In this document: positions 1,324-20,950 of the stretch, piece after piece | Layout of the letters: each line of letters starts with the position of its first letter | Numbering within the stretch: position 1 is the stretch's first letter | Source of the DNA: a virus | Taxonomy: Duplodnaviria; Heunggongvirae; Uroviricota; Caudoviricetes | DNA length: 64,000 nucleotides | Strand: one strand, 5' to 3' | IMG/VR virus record: IMGVR_UViG_3300044675_001501 | Coordinates: 1-64,000 of that record | Notes under the pieces: model-generated | Database searches by the model: none | What the model was told of the DNA's origin: nothing | Seen by the model: the letters and a program-made list of their open reading frames with translations, nothing else | Position numbers and translations under genes: made by a program

Positions 1324-1848
1324 TTACAACCTTTCTGATAAATCATCTTTTTCCTTTTCTGTTAAAAGTTGTTTATCAGTTTTCTTCGCTTCACCTTTTT
1401 CTGCAATATCAATTTTCTGTGGCTTCTTATGCTCAGGAATAATACGCTCAAGAGCAATCTTCAACATACCATTAATTAATTCTGCACCTTTGATCTCTAC
1501 TTGATCATTCAGCGCAAAGGTATGTGTAAAGTTACGAGTAGCGATTCCCTTATGCAACCACTCTAGTGCTGTGTTATCTTCATTTGCCTTACCTTTAACA
1601 ATTAGTTTGTCATCAGCAAATTCGATTTCTAGTTCCTGTTTTGTGAAACCAGCAACAGCCATCTCAACAACATACTTATTTTCTGCTGTCTTCTTGATAT
1701 TGAATGGTGGATAGTTTGGAACATTTTTGGTCAGATCGTCATGCATTTTTGCTAGACGATTGAATTGATCATCGAAACCGACAAAGAACTTGTCGAAATC
1801 TTTGAACTGAGGGTGTAACATTGTATCTGGTAGCCATTTGTGTACCAT
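1324..1848 (-). CDS. hsp20: small heat-shock protein, Hsp20/alpha-crystallin family (IbpA-like)
   Basis: The alpha-crystallin domain pattern is present: PPFNI...YVVEMAVAGFTKQELEIEF.DDKLIVKGK...R.F...F.L...V.I.GA.L.NGML.I. AAGGAG lies 7 nt upstream of the ATG. Confidence 0.85.
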   Translation of the reverse strand: MVHKWLPDTMLHPQFKDFDKFFVGFDDQFNRLAKMHDDLTKNVPNYPPFNIKKTAENKYVVEMAVAGFTKQELEIEFADDKLIVKGKANEDNTALEWLHKGIATRNFTHTFALNDQVEIKGAELINGMLKIALERIIPEHKKPQKIDIAEKGEAKKTDKQLLTEKEKDDLSERL

Positions 1849-1870
1849 AATAGTCTCCTTATTAAGCGAG

Positions 1871-1898
1871 TTATAAAATTACTACCCCGAAGGCGTAG
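1871..1898 (-). terminator. UUCG-tetraloop hairpin followed by a U-rich tract (candidate partial terminator after pqqA)
   Basis: The minus strand reads CUAC-G-CC-UUCG-GG-G-GUAG followed by UAAUUUUAUAA. It lies between the pqqA stop and the hsp20 RBS. Confidence 0.45.
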
Positions 1899-1909
1899 CA
1901 GTTTAAATA

Positions 1910-1961
1910 GTCGGCTTTTAACGTAGTTACCGACCAACTACGTTCCCATCCCGATTGGGAT
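1910..1961 (-). other. structured RNA element downstream of pqqA: 5-bp hairpin, 9-bp hairpin and possible H-type pseudoknot
   Basis: On the minus strand, AUCCC-AAUC-GGGAU occupies 1948-1961 and AACGUAGUU-GGUCGGU-AACUACGUU occupies 1920-1944. Loop bases GUCGG are complementary to CCGAC (plus 1910-1914), which begins 5 nt 3' of the stem. Confidence 0.4.
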
Positions 1962-1970
1962 CAGATTTAT

Positions 1971-2042
1971 TTAGCGATTTGCGATATACATTGTAATCTC
2001 AAATCCAAAACGCATATCAGTAGCTACTGGTTTTGTCCACAT
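1971..2042 (-). CDS. pqqA: PqqA-like peptide (pyrroloquinoline quinone precursor), 23 aa
   Basis: The minus strand has AAGGAG, a 7-nt spacer (ATAATT A..), then ATG TGG ACA AAA CCA and onward, giving [23 protein letters not shown] followed by TAA. It has the M-W-x-K-P leader and the E-x-x-x-Y core (E15, Y19) typical of PqqA, and the length is typical (22-24 aa). It is too short to appear in the ORF track. Confidence 0.8.
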
Positions 2043-2060
2043 AATTATCTCCTTGGTTAA

Positions 2061-2106
2061 TTGTCCGAACTGGACAATAATACTTATCCCTACTGTGGCG
2101 ATAAGT
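2061..2106 (-). other. two hairpins in the regA-pqqA spacer
   Basis: The inverted repeats are TTGTCC/GGACAA (2061-2077) and ACTTATC/GATAAGT (2082-2106). Both lie upstream of the pqqA RBS on the minus strand. Confidence 0.4.
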
Positions 2107-2140
2107 CCCTAAGGATTTTCATTAAAAACTCATAAATTAT

Positions 2141-2557
2141 TTAGCGTTTTTTTCCGATATTATACTTAGGAACTAATTCCCATTCATCTTTTTCTTTATG
2201 CGTAACTACTTTAATCTGCGACAAAGATGCTTTCGGCTCTGACTTAGATGGTAGCATAATCTTTAACAAACCCCAATCTTGCAAAAGACCAGCAATAGTA
2301 TTGCGTCTCTCAACATCATTGGATGTAATGTTAGATTCTTTACCGTCTAGAGCGAACAGCTCTTTAAAGTGCACAATAAAGTACCTGCCCTGCTTATGTA
2401 AGATATGGCAAGACTGGTATAATTTTTTATCTTTACGGGAAGCGATACCAATACGAGTTAGAGTCTCTCTAACCTTCAGGAAATTGTCTGGTTCTGGTAG
2501 GGTCACTTCTAGCATGGACTCTGGAGTCCAATCGTAATAAACCATTTCAACACTCAT
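2141..2557 (-). CDS. regA: RegA translational repressor of early genes
   Basis: Strong resemblance to T4 RegA: PE(D/P)(F/N)FLKV(K/R)ETLTR(M/I)GIA..KDK.LYQSCHIL.K.G.Y.IVHFKE...DG, with a C-terminal E.W.LVPKY.IG. It sits in the canonical position after gp62. Confidence 0.9.
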   Translation of the reverse strand: MSVEMVYYDWTPESMLEVTLPEPDNFLKVRETLTRIGIASRKDKKLYQSCHILHKQGRYFIVHFKELFALDGKESNITSNDVERRNTIAGLLQDWGLLKIMLPSKSEPKASLSQIKVVTHKEKDEWELVPKYNIGKKR

Positions 2558-20296: not shown

Positions 20297-20950
20297 TTAT
20301 TTGATTTTACTTAAAAAGTATTCAAAAGCACGAATCTTCGCTTCCACCAATTGCTTAGAGGATGCTTGTTTAATTGAATGCTTTACAGCATCAATGTGCT
20401 TCTCCACAAAGTTTCCATCAACGTAAATCCATTCTTTACTTTCCATAACTCCACGGACGAAAGCCTCTGGAGCTGAAGGGTCGGCTACGATGTCAGCGGC
20501 AGTAGATAACATAAAGTCATCCTGTACTACTTGGACGCCTTCTTCGTTTTCTTTTAGAGAACCAAGTGCTCTACTAGAAACTCCAAGATTAGCGCCACCG
20601 TCTAACAATCCTTTAGCAATCTGACCCATTGGTGTGTCAAGAATTTTTGCCTTACCAACATAGTTGGTTCCCTCTTTTTTAAGAGAGGTGATTAAATGAG
20701 AAACTCGCTCTAAATTAATGGAAGGGTTTTCAGGATGTCCCAGCTCTCCATATGCACGATTTTTCTCAACGTATTCTTTAATGTAACGATCGACTTCTTT
20801 ATCCATAATGTCTTCTGAATACATACGACCATTACGGTTTACTAATTCTGATTGAAGGAAGATACCTTCAATAAAATATTGTTTACCCTTGCCGAGTTTT
20901 TCCTCAACAATAAGTTTTGGTGTCTCGATAAATTCTCTAATTAGTTTCAT
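20297..20950 (-). CDS. gp21: prohead core protease gp21
   Basis: Contains the N.RMY motif and GELGHP..P motifs of the T4 gp21 prohead protease family. Synteny supports the call. Confidence 0.88.
   Translation of the reverse strand: MKLIREFIETPKLIVEEKLGKGKQYFIEGIFLQSELVNRNGRMYSEDIMDKEVDRYIKEYVEKNRAYGELGHPENPSINLERVSHLITSLKKEGTNYVGKAKILDTPMGQIAKGLLDGGANLGVSSRALGSLKENEEGVQVVQDDFMLSTAADIVADPSAPEAFVRGVMESKEWIYVDGNFVEKHIDAVKHSIKQASSKQLVEAKIRAFEYFLSKIK

Follow-up and report, generated by a model that had tools for sequence, protein, structure and literature searches.

Among the accessory genes of T4-like cyanophages and of their relatives from fresh water, hsp20 is one of the most widely distributed, and we know of no explanation so far for how it is regulated. 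At the locus studied here, in a 64-kb stretch of caudovirus DNA (the window), a spacer of 292 nt (window positions 1849 to 2140) separates the regA stop (2141) from the hsp20 start (1848) on the minus strand, and pqqA sits inside it. The identities of the three genes are backed by Pfam and NCBIfam (Table 1); for hsp20 the top NCBIfam models were IbpA and IbpB, each below its equivalog cutoff. A preliminary description had presented the spacer as one block of RNA hairpins wrapped around pqqA. Instead, it appears as a composite, given that one relative (L004) has the hsp20 leader without pqqA. We consider it probable that the spacer consists of two independent units, a mobile pqqA mini-cassette and an hsp20 leader with a ROSE-like RNA thermometer.

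The regA-hsp20 spacer is structured

Every hairpin in the preliminary list is present in the minus-strand sequence between 1849 and 2140, and most are conserved structures. Folded as RNA, the spacer reached −77.4 kcal/mol, whereas 200 dinucleotide-shuffled versions gave −61.8 ± 5.1 (z = −3.06) and a single one of them did equally well. At 37°C the individual hairpins, folded alone, had energies between −6.3 and −10.1 kcal/mol. What could be said for functionless chance repeats in an AT-rich spacer is that short inverted repeats in two copies are commonplace and that neither HP-A nor hairpin II shows covariation. That reading is nevertheless extremely improbable, given the z-score, the strong covariation of hairpin I, the excess of hairpin 2 and of the pseudoknot over shuffled sequences, and the retention of the leader element across uncultured phages, cultured cyanophages, and E. 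coli ibpB; the comparative data already contradict it.

No tRNA or tmRNA was found in the window, in agreement with the earlier statement that the spacer is not a tRNA, and no Rfam riboswitch family matched the spacer, where the earlier description had likewise recognized none. In searches of the window and 31 phage loci at gathering thresholds, the spacer matched no Rfam family, whether ROSE, riboswitch, or any other. The gathering matches returned by those searches were tRNAs, GOLLD, and tmRNA, all outside it.

Table 1. Features of the regA-hsp20 region (window coordinates)
Feature	Position	Strand	Description
regA, translational repressor, upstream neighbor	2141..2557	-	CDS, listed ORF; Pfam PF01818, 160.6 bits
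pqqA-specific palindromic DNA motif	2108..2125	-	UUAAUGAAAAUCCUUAGG; family consensus TTAATGATTTTCAYTAK; core AATGA-N3-TCATT
Hairpin 1	2082..2106	-	ACUUAUC-N11-GAUAAGU; −8.4 kcal/mol; 3' arm overlaps TAAGTA box at 2081-2086
Hairpin 2, conserved 5'-UTR stem-loop of pqqA cassette	2061..2077	-	UUGUCC-AGUUC-GGACAA
pqqA Shine-Dalgarno (SD) region	2047..2056	-	CCAAGGAGAU; AAGGAG kept 6 to 8 nt before ATG in pqqA contexts
pqqA, PQQ precursor peptide	1971..2042	-	23 codons; PF08042, 37.9 bits (cutoff 21.1); TIGR02107, 38.5 bits (cutoff 20)
HP-A	1948..1961	-	AUCCC-AAUC-GGGAU; −6.7 kcal/mol; overlaps conserved GGGAUGGGAA box (1943-1952)
9-bp hairpin	1920-1944	-	AACGUAGUU-GGUCGGU-AACUACGUU; loop GUCGG complementary to CCGAC(U), 1909-1914, past linker AAAAG
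H-type pseudoknot	1909..1944	-	S1 AACGUAG(UU)/(AA)CUACGUU, 1936-1944 with 1920-1928
Pseudoknot S2	GGUCGG 1930-1935 with CCGACU 1909-1914	-	L3 = AAAAG, 1915-1919
ROSE-like hairpin I	1881..1899	-	GCUAC-G-CC-UUCG-GG-GUAGU; 7 bp, bulged G, UUCG tetraloop; −7.7 kcal/mol at 37°C
A/U-rich single-stranded linker	1871..1880	-	AAUUUUAUAA
ROSE-like hairpin II	1855..1870	-	CUC-G-CUU-AAU-AAGGAG; anti-SD UCGCU (1865-1869) pairs SD AAGGAG (1855-1860) around bulged G
hsp20, IbpA-type small heat-shock protein	1324..1848	-	PF00011, 63.3 bits

A probable mobile pqqA cassette

As the preliminary description had it, pqqA is a genuine gene. Its product scores above the Pfam and TIGRFAM cutoffs and carries the conserved Glu-X3-Tyr within FEITMY, and substitutions are concentrated in third codon positions (105/105/410 at the first, second, and third). 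A pattern search matched more than 120 viral contigs, and 98 distinct phage pqqA contexts were compared. The palindromic motif, which occurs once in the 64-kb window in a search allowing two mismatches (no more than expected by chance), precedes the ATG by 75 to 125 nt in 63 of these contexts, its center at about −43 relative to a −10-like box. In the window the equivalent of that box is TAAGTA, invariant in 11 T4-like pqqA contexts and found at the modal offset (37) where other pqqA cassettes carry TATAAT; the promoter is assigned by position only, since TAAGTA is a poor match to TATAAT.

Hairpin 1 retains its pairing in about seven relatives with few changes (C:G, U.G, U:A; AUC/GAU versus AG/CU), as judged by eye. 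RNAalifold gave no consensus pairing at this position, nor any consensus structure, in 11 T4-like pqqA leaders, because MAFFT misaligned hairpin 2, and pqqA contexts were instead folded sequence by sequence and compared with shuffles. Since the 3' arm of hairpin 1 falls on the invariant TAAGTA, at the position of TATAAT, this hairpin may lie in promoter DNA rather than in the pqqA mRNA. As for hairpin 2, 75% of the 98 distinct contexts, versus 4% of shuffles, had a hairpin at least as stable as −5 kcal/mol within the 40 nt preceding the pqqA SD, the stems being mutually unrelated in sequence. An anti-SD role for UCCUUAGG upstream of pqqA, suggested by the minimum-free-energy fold, was rejected because these letters belong to the palindromic motif and are conserved alongside different SD flanks.

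The first unit (about 2125 to 1971) would then be a mobile mini-cassette, found in many unrelated phage contexts and ordered as palindrome near −43 of the −10-like box, stem-loop near the predicted mRNA 5' end, SD, and PqqA. Hairpin 2 would stabilize the pqqA mRNA, while hairpin 1 would span the promoter-like spacer and take RNA form only in transcripts reading through from regA. Host enzymes (PqqE/PqqD) would presumably act on the phage PqqA.

The structures downstream of pqqA probably belong to hsp20

The preliminary description had tied the three elements downstream of pqqA to that gene, as a 3' terminator or stabilizer yielding an abundant short pqqA mRNA uncoupled from hsp20. For other phages a hairpin after pqqA is indeed the rule, with a canonical intrinsic terminator about 10 to 40 nt downstream in at least 56 of the 98 contexts, which fits a short pqqA transcript. 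In the window, the downstream elements go with hsp20. In L004, AUCCC/GGGAU (HP-A), the pseudoknot, and both ROSE hairpins stand directly after the regA stop without any pqqA, which makes them part of the hsp20 leader, and many hsp20 loci lacking pqqA also have this type of pseudoknot 5' of hairpin I. Moreover, HP-A and the pseudoknot are followed in the window by GGGAAC and UAUUUAAAC, with no U tract, so the GC-rich stem-loop plus U run of a rho-independent terminator is absent after this pqqA, and a terminator scan returned no minus-strand site in the spacer (1849-1970). Some observations do point toward pqqA, namely, a similar pseudoknot after pqqA in one non-hsp20 context (L169) and the position of 17 of 23 strict pseudoknot-scanner matches 16 to 26 nt after a pqqA stop, and a processed pqqA RNA could still gain protection from stable 3' structures. 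Taken together, we regard a pqqA 3' structure as an unlikely explanation and assign these elements to the hsp20 leader.

A putative ROSE-like thermometer in the hsp20 leader

The C(UUCG)G hairpin noted earlier before the hsp20 SD does exist, but together with UAAUUUUAU it is best read as hairpin I of a thermometer and its linker (in the window, hairpin I is followed by AAUUUUAUA). The earlier list was also incomplete: it lacked the bulged 6-bp hairpin containing the hsp20 SD (1855-1870), and therefore the thermometer. The hsp20 AUG lies 6 nt past hairpin II and is unpaired in it. By nearest-neighbor calculation, hairpin II weakens from −5.8 kcal/mol at 10°C through −4.4 at 20°C to −2.2 at 37°C while hairpin I stays closed, and the window sequence folds alone into the same two hairpins from 4 to 42°C. 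In the same nearest-neighbor framework, the predicted pairing of the SD is 0.98 at 4°C and still 0.72 at 42°C, which is not proof of a switch in the relevant range.

RNAalifold applied to 30 distinct leaders returned exactly hairpins I and II, with the SD inside hairpin II, and 96.7% of the alignment cells were paired, versus 42 to 52% with slid partners; already in this set, five of the seven pairs of hairpin I varied on both sides. A covariance model (CM R1) built from these 30 leaders was searched over 99 sources and gave 93 matches, 68 of them distinct, located 5' of hsp20 or of a small open reading frame preceding hsp20 wherever coordinates were compared. Compensatory changes, the test suggested for the relatives, were found in hairpin I: among the 68 distinct sequences five of seven pairs changed on both sides, with 78 double-change cells versus 11.8 in shuffles (0 of 500 as high). 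The proportion of paired cells in the 68-sequence alignment (A5), 99.9%, is inflated because that alignment was fitted to the model. In both the 30 and the 68 leaders the anti-SD CTCGCT is invariant; the pairing of hairpin II is therefore argued from sequence conservation and analogy, not from covariation.

Beyond the uncultured relatives, the model matched phages C48C1 (24.6 bits), S-RIM8 (41), S-CAM9 (36), and P-SSM2 (52), bacterial ibpA-like leaders (24 to 36 bits), and the leader of E. coli K-12 ibpB (22.1 bits, E = 0.003 in 72 kb). By blastn, the P-SSM2 element was found in at least 131 cultured cyanophage records, where the feature annotated beneath it, among the matches listed, was either hsp20 or nothing. 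The regA regions of HTVC008M and Melnitz had no hsp20 and no match to the model.

The proposed Rfam scan gave no family at gathering in the spacer and only subthreshold ROSE_3 matches at the same place (window, 16.1 bits; C48C1, 26.8; S-CAM9, 20; gathering, 43), with none of the ROSE models reaching gathering in the window or its relatives. This is weak evidence, because Rfam at gathering also found nothing in 20 bacterial ibpA-like loci, yet the ROSE signature is present in most of 80 bacterial loci.

ROSE elements are defined by U(U/C)GCU imperfectly pairing the SD in a 3' hairpin, with two to four hairpins and a bulged G, upstream of small heat-shock protein genes (PMC3669281, PMC11182007). 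The window has CUC-G-CUU/AAGGAG with the bulged G, the consensus of the 30 leaders has the two-hairpin architecture with the SD in hairpin II, phage C48C1 and bacterial leaders have UUGCU variants of the anti-SD, and the element (1855-1899) ends 6 nt before the ATG of an IbpA-type hsp20. E. coli ibpA and ibpB are listed as having ROSE-like thermometers (PMC6096418), and the phage model's match to ibpB relates it to a studied member. On these grounds the hsp20 leader is a putative ROSE-like RNA thermometer, with thermosensing as its predicted function. The backing for this reading of the leader is its sequences, their conservation and covariation, and homology to bacterial leaders including E. 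coli ibpB; the temperature response, the transcript ends, and the role of the pseudoknot are what we infer.

C(UUCG)G hairpins are classic T4 intercistronic elements, and the UUCG hairpin with its U-rich tract could instead (or in addition) be a leaky intrinsic terminator or attenuator of regA/pqqA transcripts that limits read-through into hsp20. The GC-rich 7-bp stem with a stable tetraloop suits such a role (UUCG occurs in 32 of 68 distinct leaders), as does the linker, which in the same leaders is 54% U, 40% A, and 1% G, has UUUU in 71% and at least five U in its first 9 nt in 66%, so that hairpin I plus linker looks terminator-like in about two-thirds of the uncultured relatives. Cyanophages S-RIM8, S-CAM9, and P-SSM2, however, have a CA-rich linker after the same hairpin, and in E. 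coli ibpB and the bacterial leaders the hairpin lacks a U tract. In S-RIM8, hairpin I is closely preceded by a TTGACA-N18-TATTAA promoter and therefore begins the transcript there. In addition, the gap between hairpin I and the SD hairpin is only 8 to 12 nt, which leaves no room for a promoter, so that efficient termination would silence a conserved gene. We consider termination at hairpin I improbable, and keep hairpin I as part of the putative thermometer.

A pseudoknot module upstream of the putative thermometer

HP-A overlaps a conserved box, and 42 of 63 distinct leaders have GGGATGGGA no more than 220 nt 5' of hairpin I; the HP-A stem is nearly invariant and so shows no covariation. A pattern scan for the GGGAUGGGAAC box gave mostly chance matches in coding DNA, with only about 12 true relatives.

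The 9-bp hairpin that follows has the H-type geometry recognized in the preliminary description, which recurs in relatives with the same topology and different stem sequences. The loop of stem 1 is complementary to sequence 3' of that stem, across a 5-nt L3, with stabilities of −10.1 kcal/mol for S1 and −7.8 for the S2 duplex; both helices would be sterically feasible if the two top U:A pairs of the 9-bp stem open, leaving L1 = UU. Compensatory changes were seen in both helices, with S2 as GGUAG/CUACC, GGCAG/CUGCC, GGAGG/CCUUC, UGACGG/CCGUCA, GCAGU/ACUGC, and CUUGG/CCAAG, and S1 as AACAAGG/CCUUGUU versus AACGAGG/CCUCGUU. These come from by-eye registers and a custom scanner with shuffle controls, the MAFFT alignment being out of structural register. 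A pseudoknot ending just 5' of hairpin I was found in 47% of 59 distinct leaders versus 3.5% of shuffles. About half of the leaders carry another 5' module in its place, and some relatives have as many as three pseudoknots in tandem. The conserved letters are UUGG at the start of the loop, GUAA at its end, and GGGAUGGGA in the 5' flank.

Two other candidates were discarded. A switch in which the 3' strand of the pseudoknot pairs with the hsp20 anti-SD was rejected because other variants do not conserve the pairing, and what looked like a second pseudoknot family near pqqA was in fact the 3' pseudoknot belonging to a neighboring beta-type tmRNA.

Sequence conservation of GGGATGGGA, the tandem pseudoknots, and the lack of a matching Rfam family could indicate that hsp20 has a second input through a new ligand- or protein-binding regulatory RNA made up of HP-A, the GGGAUGGGAA box, and the pseudoknot. 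This could be an aptamer like that of a riboswitch, a protein site of the S1 or RegA type, or a signal for RNase processing. The short L1, A-rich L3, and loop-end GUAA add to this through their resemblance to small pseudoknot aptamers such as preQ1-I. Yet the loops are variable outside UUGG and GUAA, about half of the leaders do without the module, cyanophage and bacterial versions have hairpins I and II alone, and the loci share no ligand-related gene neighborhood. No PreQ1 or other pseudoknot riboswitch was matched even at E = 10 in window positions 1500 to 2500, nor at gathering in the window or its relatives. We therefore judge such a second input to be unlikely.

A bolder proposal, also unlikely, is that the module (with its UCCC..GGGA hairpin, its invariant GGGAUGGGA box, and between one and three A-rich-loop pseudoknots in tandem) represents a new class of structured regulatory RNA and, separately, that the pqqA palindrome is a site for a host Fur-type or class II activator. 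If so, the upstream module would add a second signal to temperature for the chaperone, either by binding a protein or small molecule or by determining where the RNA is processed, and the palindrome would make phage pqqA responsive to host physiology.

Proposed function of the hsp20 leader

In the reading that we prefer, the second unit (1961 to 1849) would be a structured hsp20 leader older than the pqqA insertion, running from the GGGAUGGGAA-box hairpin through the pseudoknot with its A-rich L3, the stable hairpin I, and the A/U linker to the weak hairpin II. At low temperature hairpin II would block 30S binding; warming would melt it, so that Hsp20 would be translated from any phage transcript carrying the leader, without host sigma-32. 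The pseudoknot and hairpin I may act as a nonmelting scaffold that insulates the weak sensor hairpin from upstream polycistronic sequence, and this scaffold may also protect RNA ends.

A thermometer of the ROSE type would let a lytic phage make its chaperone in proportion to temperature, from any transcript and independently of the heat-shock sigma factor of the host. As the leader occurs in no fewer than 131 records of cultured cyanophages and in dozens of uncultured contigs, temperature sensing by abundant aquatic viruses is directly testable in P-SSM2, Syn9, and S-RIM8 with their hosts. AT-rich members from phages, SAR11, and other marine bacteria also fall below the Rfam ROSE thresholds.

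Comparison with known systems

Phage pqqA alone has already been reported, in Methylophilaceae phages from Lake Baikal (Coutinho et al. 2020, PMC7678222); for the phage cassette, no description of the conserved palindrome upstream or of the 5' stem-loop was found in the literature searched. With bacterial pqq operons and other phage PqqA auxiliary genes, the window shares a genuine PqqA precursor with the E-X3-Y core, scoring above the Pfam/TIGRFAM cutoffs. Most phage copies are followed by a terminator hairpin, like bacterial pqqA with its downstream hairpin, whereas the copy in the window has no terminator and the structures downstream of it are those of hsp20.

The pseudoknot shares the S1-L1-S2-L2-S1'-L3-S2' topology, short L1, A-rich L3, and stems of 5 to 9 bp with preQ1-I aptamers, tmRNA pseudoknots, and viral frameshift pseudoknots. 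Unlike these small H-type RNAs, it overlaps neither an SD nor a slippery site, and it has no Rfam match.

Known phage RNA thermometers are lambda cIII, the SPbeta blyA fourU, and a gut-phage sigma-70 fourU (PMC11182007). In the literature searched these were the only three, none of the ROSE type, and there was no paper connecting cyanophage hsp20 to a thermometer and no annotation of its leader. They likewise consist of an RNA structure in a phage mRNA leader with temperature-dependent access to the SD, as predicted for the hsp20 leader. They are a two-state switch (cIII) or fourU elements of temperate or gut phages, whereas the hsp20 leader would be of the ROSE type, serving a chaperone gene in aquatic T4-like lytic phages. 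The kind of element would thus be a known one, ROSE-like thermometers, and what appears new is its occurrence in phages, for which we found no prior report in the literature searched.

The closest counterparts are the ROSE-like thermometers of small heat-shock genes in proteobacteria, above all the short two-hairpin elements of Pseudomonas ibpA and those of E. coli ibpA and ibpB (Rfam ROSE, ROSE_2, and ROSE_3), which occupy the same place immediately 5' of an IbpA-type small heat-shock protein gene. Shared features are the stable GC-rich hairpin I, the weak 3' hairpin, the U(U/C)GCU-SD pairing with its bulged G, and the AUG outside it. The phage CUCGCU is identical to the anti-SD of E. coli ibpA (CUCGCUG..CAGGAG) and ibpB, and the phage covariance model also matches low-GC bacterial ibpA-like leaders, although against the ROSE_3 model the phage elements score only 16 to 27 bits (gathering, 43). 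Hairpin II is weaker than in E. coli (−2.2 versus −4.6 and −5.1 kcal/mol at 37°C), and these calculated energies therefore suggest a lower set-point for the phage thermometer. Unlike the bacterial ROSE elements, those described here are carried by T4-like lytic phages, Kyanoviridae as well as uncultured relatives, and, in the lineage of the window, lie within a polycistronic region with no adjacent promoter and are preceded by a pseudoknot module.

Structure of the hsp20 leader

All the hairpins listed in the preliminary description are present in the minus-strand sequence of the regA-hsp20 spacer, and its three gene calls were upheld by profile matches (PqqA, HSP20/IbpA-type small heat-shock protein [sHSP], and RegA). 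The observation was confirmed, and its interpretation was supported in part. The spacer folds at -77.4 kcal/mol, whereas dinucleotide-shuffled versions give -61.8 ± 5.1 (z = -3.06). The cultured phages closest in regA belong to the Kyanoviridae (pelagimyophage HTVC008M, Melnitz, and cyanomyophages), at an identity of only ca. 68%.

Features of the regA-hsp20 region and other sites in the window
Feature	Position	Strand	Remarks
hsp20	1324-1848	minus	downstream gene, HSP20/IbpA-type sHSP
Hairpin enclosing hsp20 AUG	1831-1852	minus	CUAUU.AU..AU.GGCUA region
ROSE_3 match	1843-1902		16 bits (gathering score, 43)
regA-hsp20 spacer	1849-2140	minus	292 nt
Hairpin II	1855-1870	minus	CUC-G-CUU-AAU-AAGGAG
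Hairpin I	1881-1899	minus	UUCG loop
Pseudoknot	1909-1944	minus	stems S1 and S2, third loop L3
Box GGGAUGGGA(A)	1943-1952		just 5' of pseudoknot
HP-A	1948-1961	minus	AUCCC-AAUC-GGGAU
Terminator call	1948-1961	plus	HP-A + CAGATTTATT
Direct repeat CGCTAAATA	1968-1976; 2138-2146		9 bp; ends of pqqA and regA
pqqA	1971-2042	minus	23-codon ORF; PF08042 37.9 bits, TIGR02107 38.5 bits, both above cut-offs
Hairpin 2	2061-2077	minus	UUGUCC/GGACAA
Hairpin 1	2082-2106	minus	ACUUAUC/GAUAAGU
Palindromic motif TTAATGAAAATCCTTAGG	2108-2125	minus	family consensus TTAATGATTTTCAYTAK
regA	2141-2557	minus	upstream neighbor
Weak R1 match	20656-20716	minus	12.4 bits, E = 0.84

The list of hairpins was incomplete, since right after the UUCG hairpin (hairpin I) and an A/U linker it overlooked hairpin II, a 6-bp stem with a bulged G that includes UCGCU and holds the hsp20 Shine-Dalgarno sequence (SD). 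ROSE-like elements are defined by two to four hairpins upstream of sHSP genes, the 3' one having U(U/C)GCU imperfectly paired with the SD, typically with a bulged G (PMC3669281; PMC11182007). ROSE_3 was the one suggestive Rfam match in the E-value scan of this region, and in Phage C48C1 (26.8 bits) and S-CAM9 (20 bits) it again gave sub-threshold matches at the expected position. At gathering scores, Rfam found nothing in 20 bacterial ibpA-like loci either, so its failure to recognize the phage element is weak evidence against membership. RNAfold also predicted a further small hairpin enclosing the hsp20 AUG at all temperatures tested.

Distribution among phages

The sample comprised 80 viral contigs encoding Hsp20 relatives (58 to 100% identity). 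From 30 distinct aligned leaders, RNAalifold independently predicted the same two hairpins, with 96.7% of cells paired versus 42 to 52% when partners were slid, and changes on both sides in five of the seven hairpin I pairs; the sequence of hairpin II was invariant among the phage leaders compared. R1, a covariance model from 30 phage hsp20 leaders, gave 93 matches (68 distinct) across 99 sources, located, in the loci compared by coordinates, directly 5' of hsp20 or of an ORF of ca. 70 to 110 codons preceding it. In the model-fitted alignment, which is biased towards structure, 99.9% of cells were paired and double-change cells numbered 78, compared to 11.8 in shuffles. The intervening ORF is conserved (L004, a contig with an Hsp20 81% identical, 1430-1651; equivalents in L009, L018-L024, L034-L036, L039-L045, L048, and others) and had no Pfam or NCBIfam match; in these loci the predicted thermometer heads a two-gene unit. 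Elsewhere in the window, the weak R1 match, with CCUCUCUU-AAAAAA-GAGGG before an AUG, may be another SD-sequestering hairpin or a chance similarity.

Cultured phages were matched as well: R1 scored 24.6 bits in Phage C48C1, on the leader of its annotated hsp20, and 41 bits in S-RIM8, 36 bits in S-CAM9, and 52 bits in P-SSM2. The linker is CA-rich in all three cyanophages, and S-RIM8 carries a TTGACA-N18-TATTAA box immediately 5' to hairpin I. Used as a blastn query, the P-SSM2 element had hits in 131 records of cultured cyanophages (Syn9, S-RIM2, S-RIM8, and S-SM1 among them), and among the matches listed nothing except hsp20 was annotated under it. Taken together, these data point to a ROSE-like thermometer of phage hsp20, predicted to sense temperature and widespread in Kyanoviridae-like phages. 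As phage thermometers, the literature lists lambda cIII, SPbeta blyA, and a gut-phage sigma-70 fourU element (PMC11182007); our literature search found no report tying phage hsp20 to one. In a related phage contig (L054, 4804-5191), a GOLLD RNA (RF02032, 179 bits) lies beside tRNA genes ca. 2.6 kb downstream of hsp20.

The pseudoknot module

The downstream elements had been described as wrapped around pqqA. L004 lacks pqqA, yet its regA stop is followed directly by AUCCC-AAUC-GGGAU, the same pseudoknot hairpin with CCGAC, both ROSE hairpins, the small ORF, and hsp20; HP-A and the pseudoknot are thus parts of the hsp20 leader. The proposed H-type pseudoknot itself was supported by variant stems in relatives, for S2 GGUAG/CUACC, GGCAG/CUGCC (with one G.U variant), GGAGG/CCUUC, UGACGG/CCGUCA, GCAGU/ACUGC, UGGGGU/ACCCCA, CUUGG/CCAAG, and GAGGAA/UUCCUC, and for S1 AACUGG/CCAGUU and AACAAGG/CCUUGUU versus AACGAGG/CCUCGUU, and by enrichment over shuffles: a strict scanner found 23 matches in 2.9 Mb (1 to 5 in shuffles), and 47% of 59 distinct leaders, versus 3.5% of shuffles, had an H-type pseudoknot with A-rich L3 that ended immediately before hairpin I. 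About half of the leaders had other content there, e.g., a hairpin with a ..GUAA loop, and 7 of 59 had a late-promoter-like TATAAATA. The ROSE hairpin pair is the constant part, which in the lineage of the window is preceded by the conserved pseudoknot module. As a working model, this module would insulate folding or protect RNA ends for the thermometer within a polycistronic RNA.

Six contigs (L283, L291, L293, L313, L334, and L354) carry up to three tandem H-type pseudoknots ca. 130 nt before hairpin I, each with an A-rich third loop and two of them preceded by a UCCC..GGGA hairpin. In 42 of 63 related leaders the box GGGAUGGGA(A) is retained at the sequence level, and none of the explanations proposed so far accounts for it. 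As the plus strand has no gene at this site, the terminator called on it is most likely HP-A in mirror image.

The pqqA cassette

Phage PqqA was known from Methylophilaceae phages of Lake Baikal (PMC7678222), and the pqqA pattern appeared in >120 viral contigs (ca. 98 distinct contexts). The repeat CGCTAAATA at both borders of the pqqA segment is single copy in L004 (1300-1320), which points to a cassette inserted or lost at a 9-bp microhomology.

The palindrome occurs once in the 64-kb window, and TTAATGATTTTCAYTAK lies 75 to 125 nt before the ATG in 63 of 98 pqqA contexts. The most common spacing of AATGA and a -10-like hexamer, 37 nt, places the palindrome center near -43; -35 matches are poor. 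The core, AATGA-N3-TCATT, is also that of the E. coli Fur-box consensus, and the palindrome could be a host operator or class II activator site. At the modal -10 offset in the window, the 3' arm of hairpin 1 falls on an invariant TAAGTA; for the transcript of pqqA itself, this hairpin, whose pairing is retained in ca. seven relatives, is therefore likely to be promoter DNA. Between the -10-like box and the SD, 75% of contexts (4% of shuffles) have a stem-loop of ≤-5 kcal/mol, with unrelated stem sequences; hairpin 2 is that of the window. By analogy with bacterial pqq operons, a hairpin after pqqA had been proposed to uncouple it from hsp20. A canonical terminator does follow the pqqA stop in at least 56 of 98 phage contexts, but the terminator scan found none after the window pqqA.

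In seven contigs a betaproteobacterial-type tmRNA gene adjoins pqqA (L088, 2793-3114; L110, 3781-4148; L158, 1-295; L169, 5797-6175; L172, 316-669; L182, 2263-2607; L187, 3012-3368), and downstream of pqqA in L099, L172, and L088 there are also copies of the sequence of the tmRNA's 3' pseudoknot; this hints at beta-type hosts (e.g., a methylotroph) for those phages.

Comparison with bacterial thermometers

The closest cellular relatives of the window Hsp20 (IbpA-like, 40 to 49% identical) belong mostly to Alphaproteobacteria, with some Gammaproteobacteria MAGs and one Pelagibacter. Two bacterial MAG contigs, L201 (Chitinophagia) and L202 (Aquiluna), carry a phage-type hsp20 (66% and 57% identity) and leader (R1, 63 and 72 bits) and are probably wrongly binned phage DNA.

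Predicted hairpin energies (kcal/mol)
Hairpin	10°C	20°C	37°C
Window hairpin I	-13.0	-11.1	-7.7
Window hairpin II	-5.8	-4.4	-2.2
E. coli ibpA SD hairpin	-8.5	-7.1	-4.6
E. coli ibpB SD hairpin	-9.8	-8.1	-5.1

Most leaders of the cellular relatives share the phage plan, a hairpin with a GCC-loop-GGG top and then U(U/C)GCU opposite the SD, and low-GC ones were matched by R1 at 24 to 36 bits. The phage model also matched the E. coli K-12 ibpB leader (22 bits, E = 0.003; GCGAAUCUUCGGAUUUGC..ACUCGCUUCUUAGAAGGAG), and the E. coli ibpA leader has CUCGCUG-AUUU-CAGGAG; both are named as ROSE-like thermometers in a review (PMC6096418). Hairpin I is predicted to stay closed throughout the temperatures tested, and the energetics would fit a stable scaffold followed by a labile sensor, hairpin II, whose set-point would be lower than those of the enteric ibpA and ibpB hairpins.
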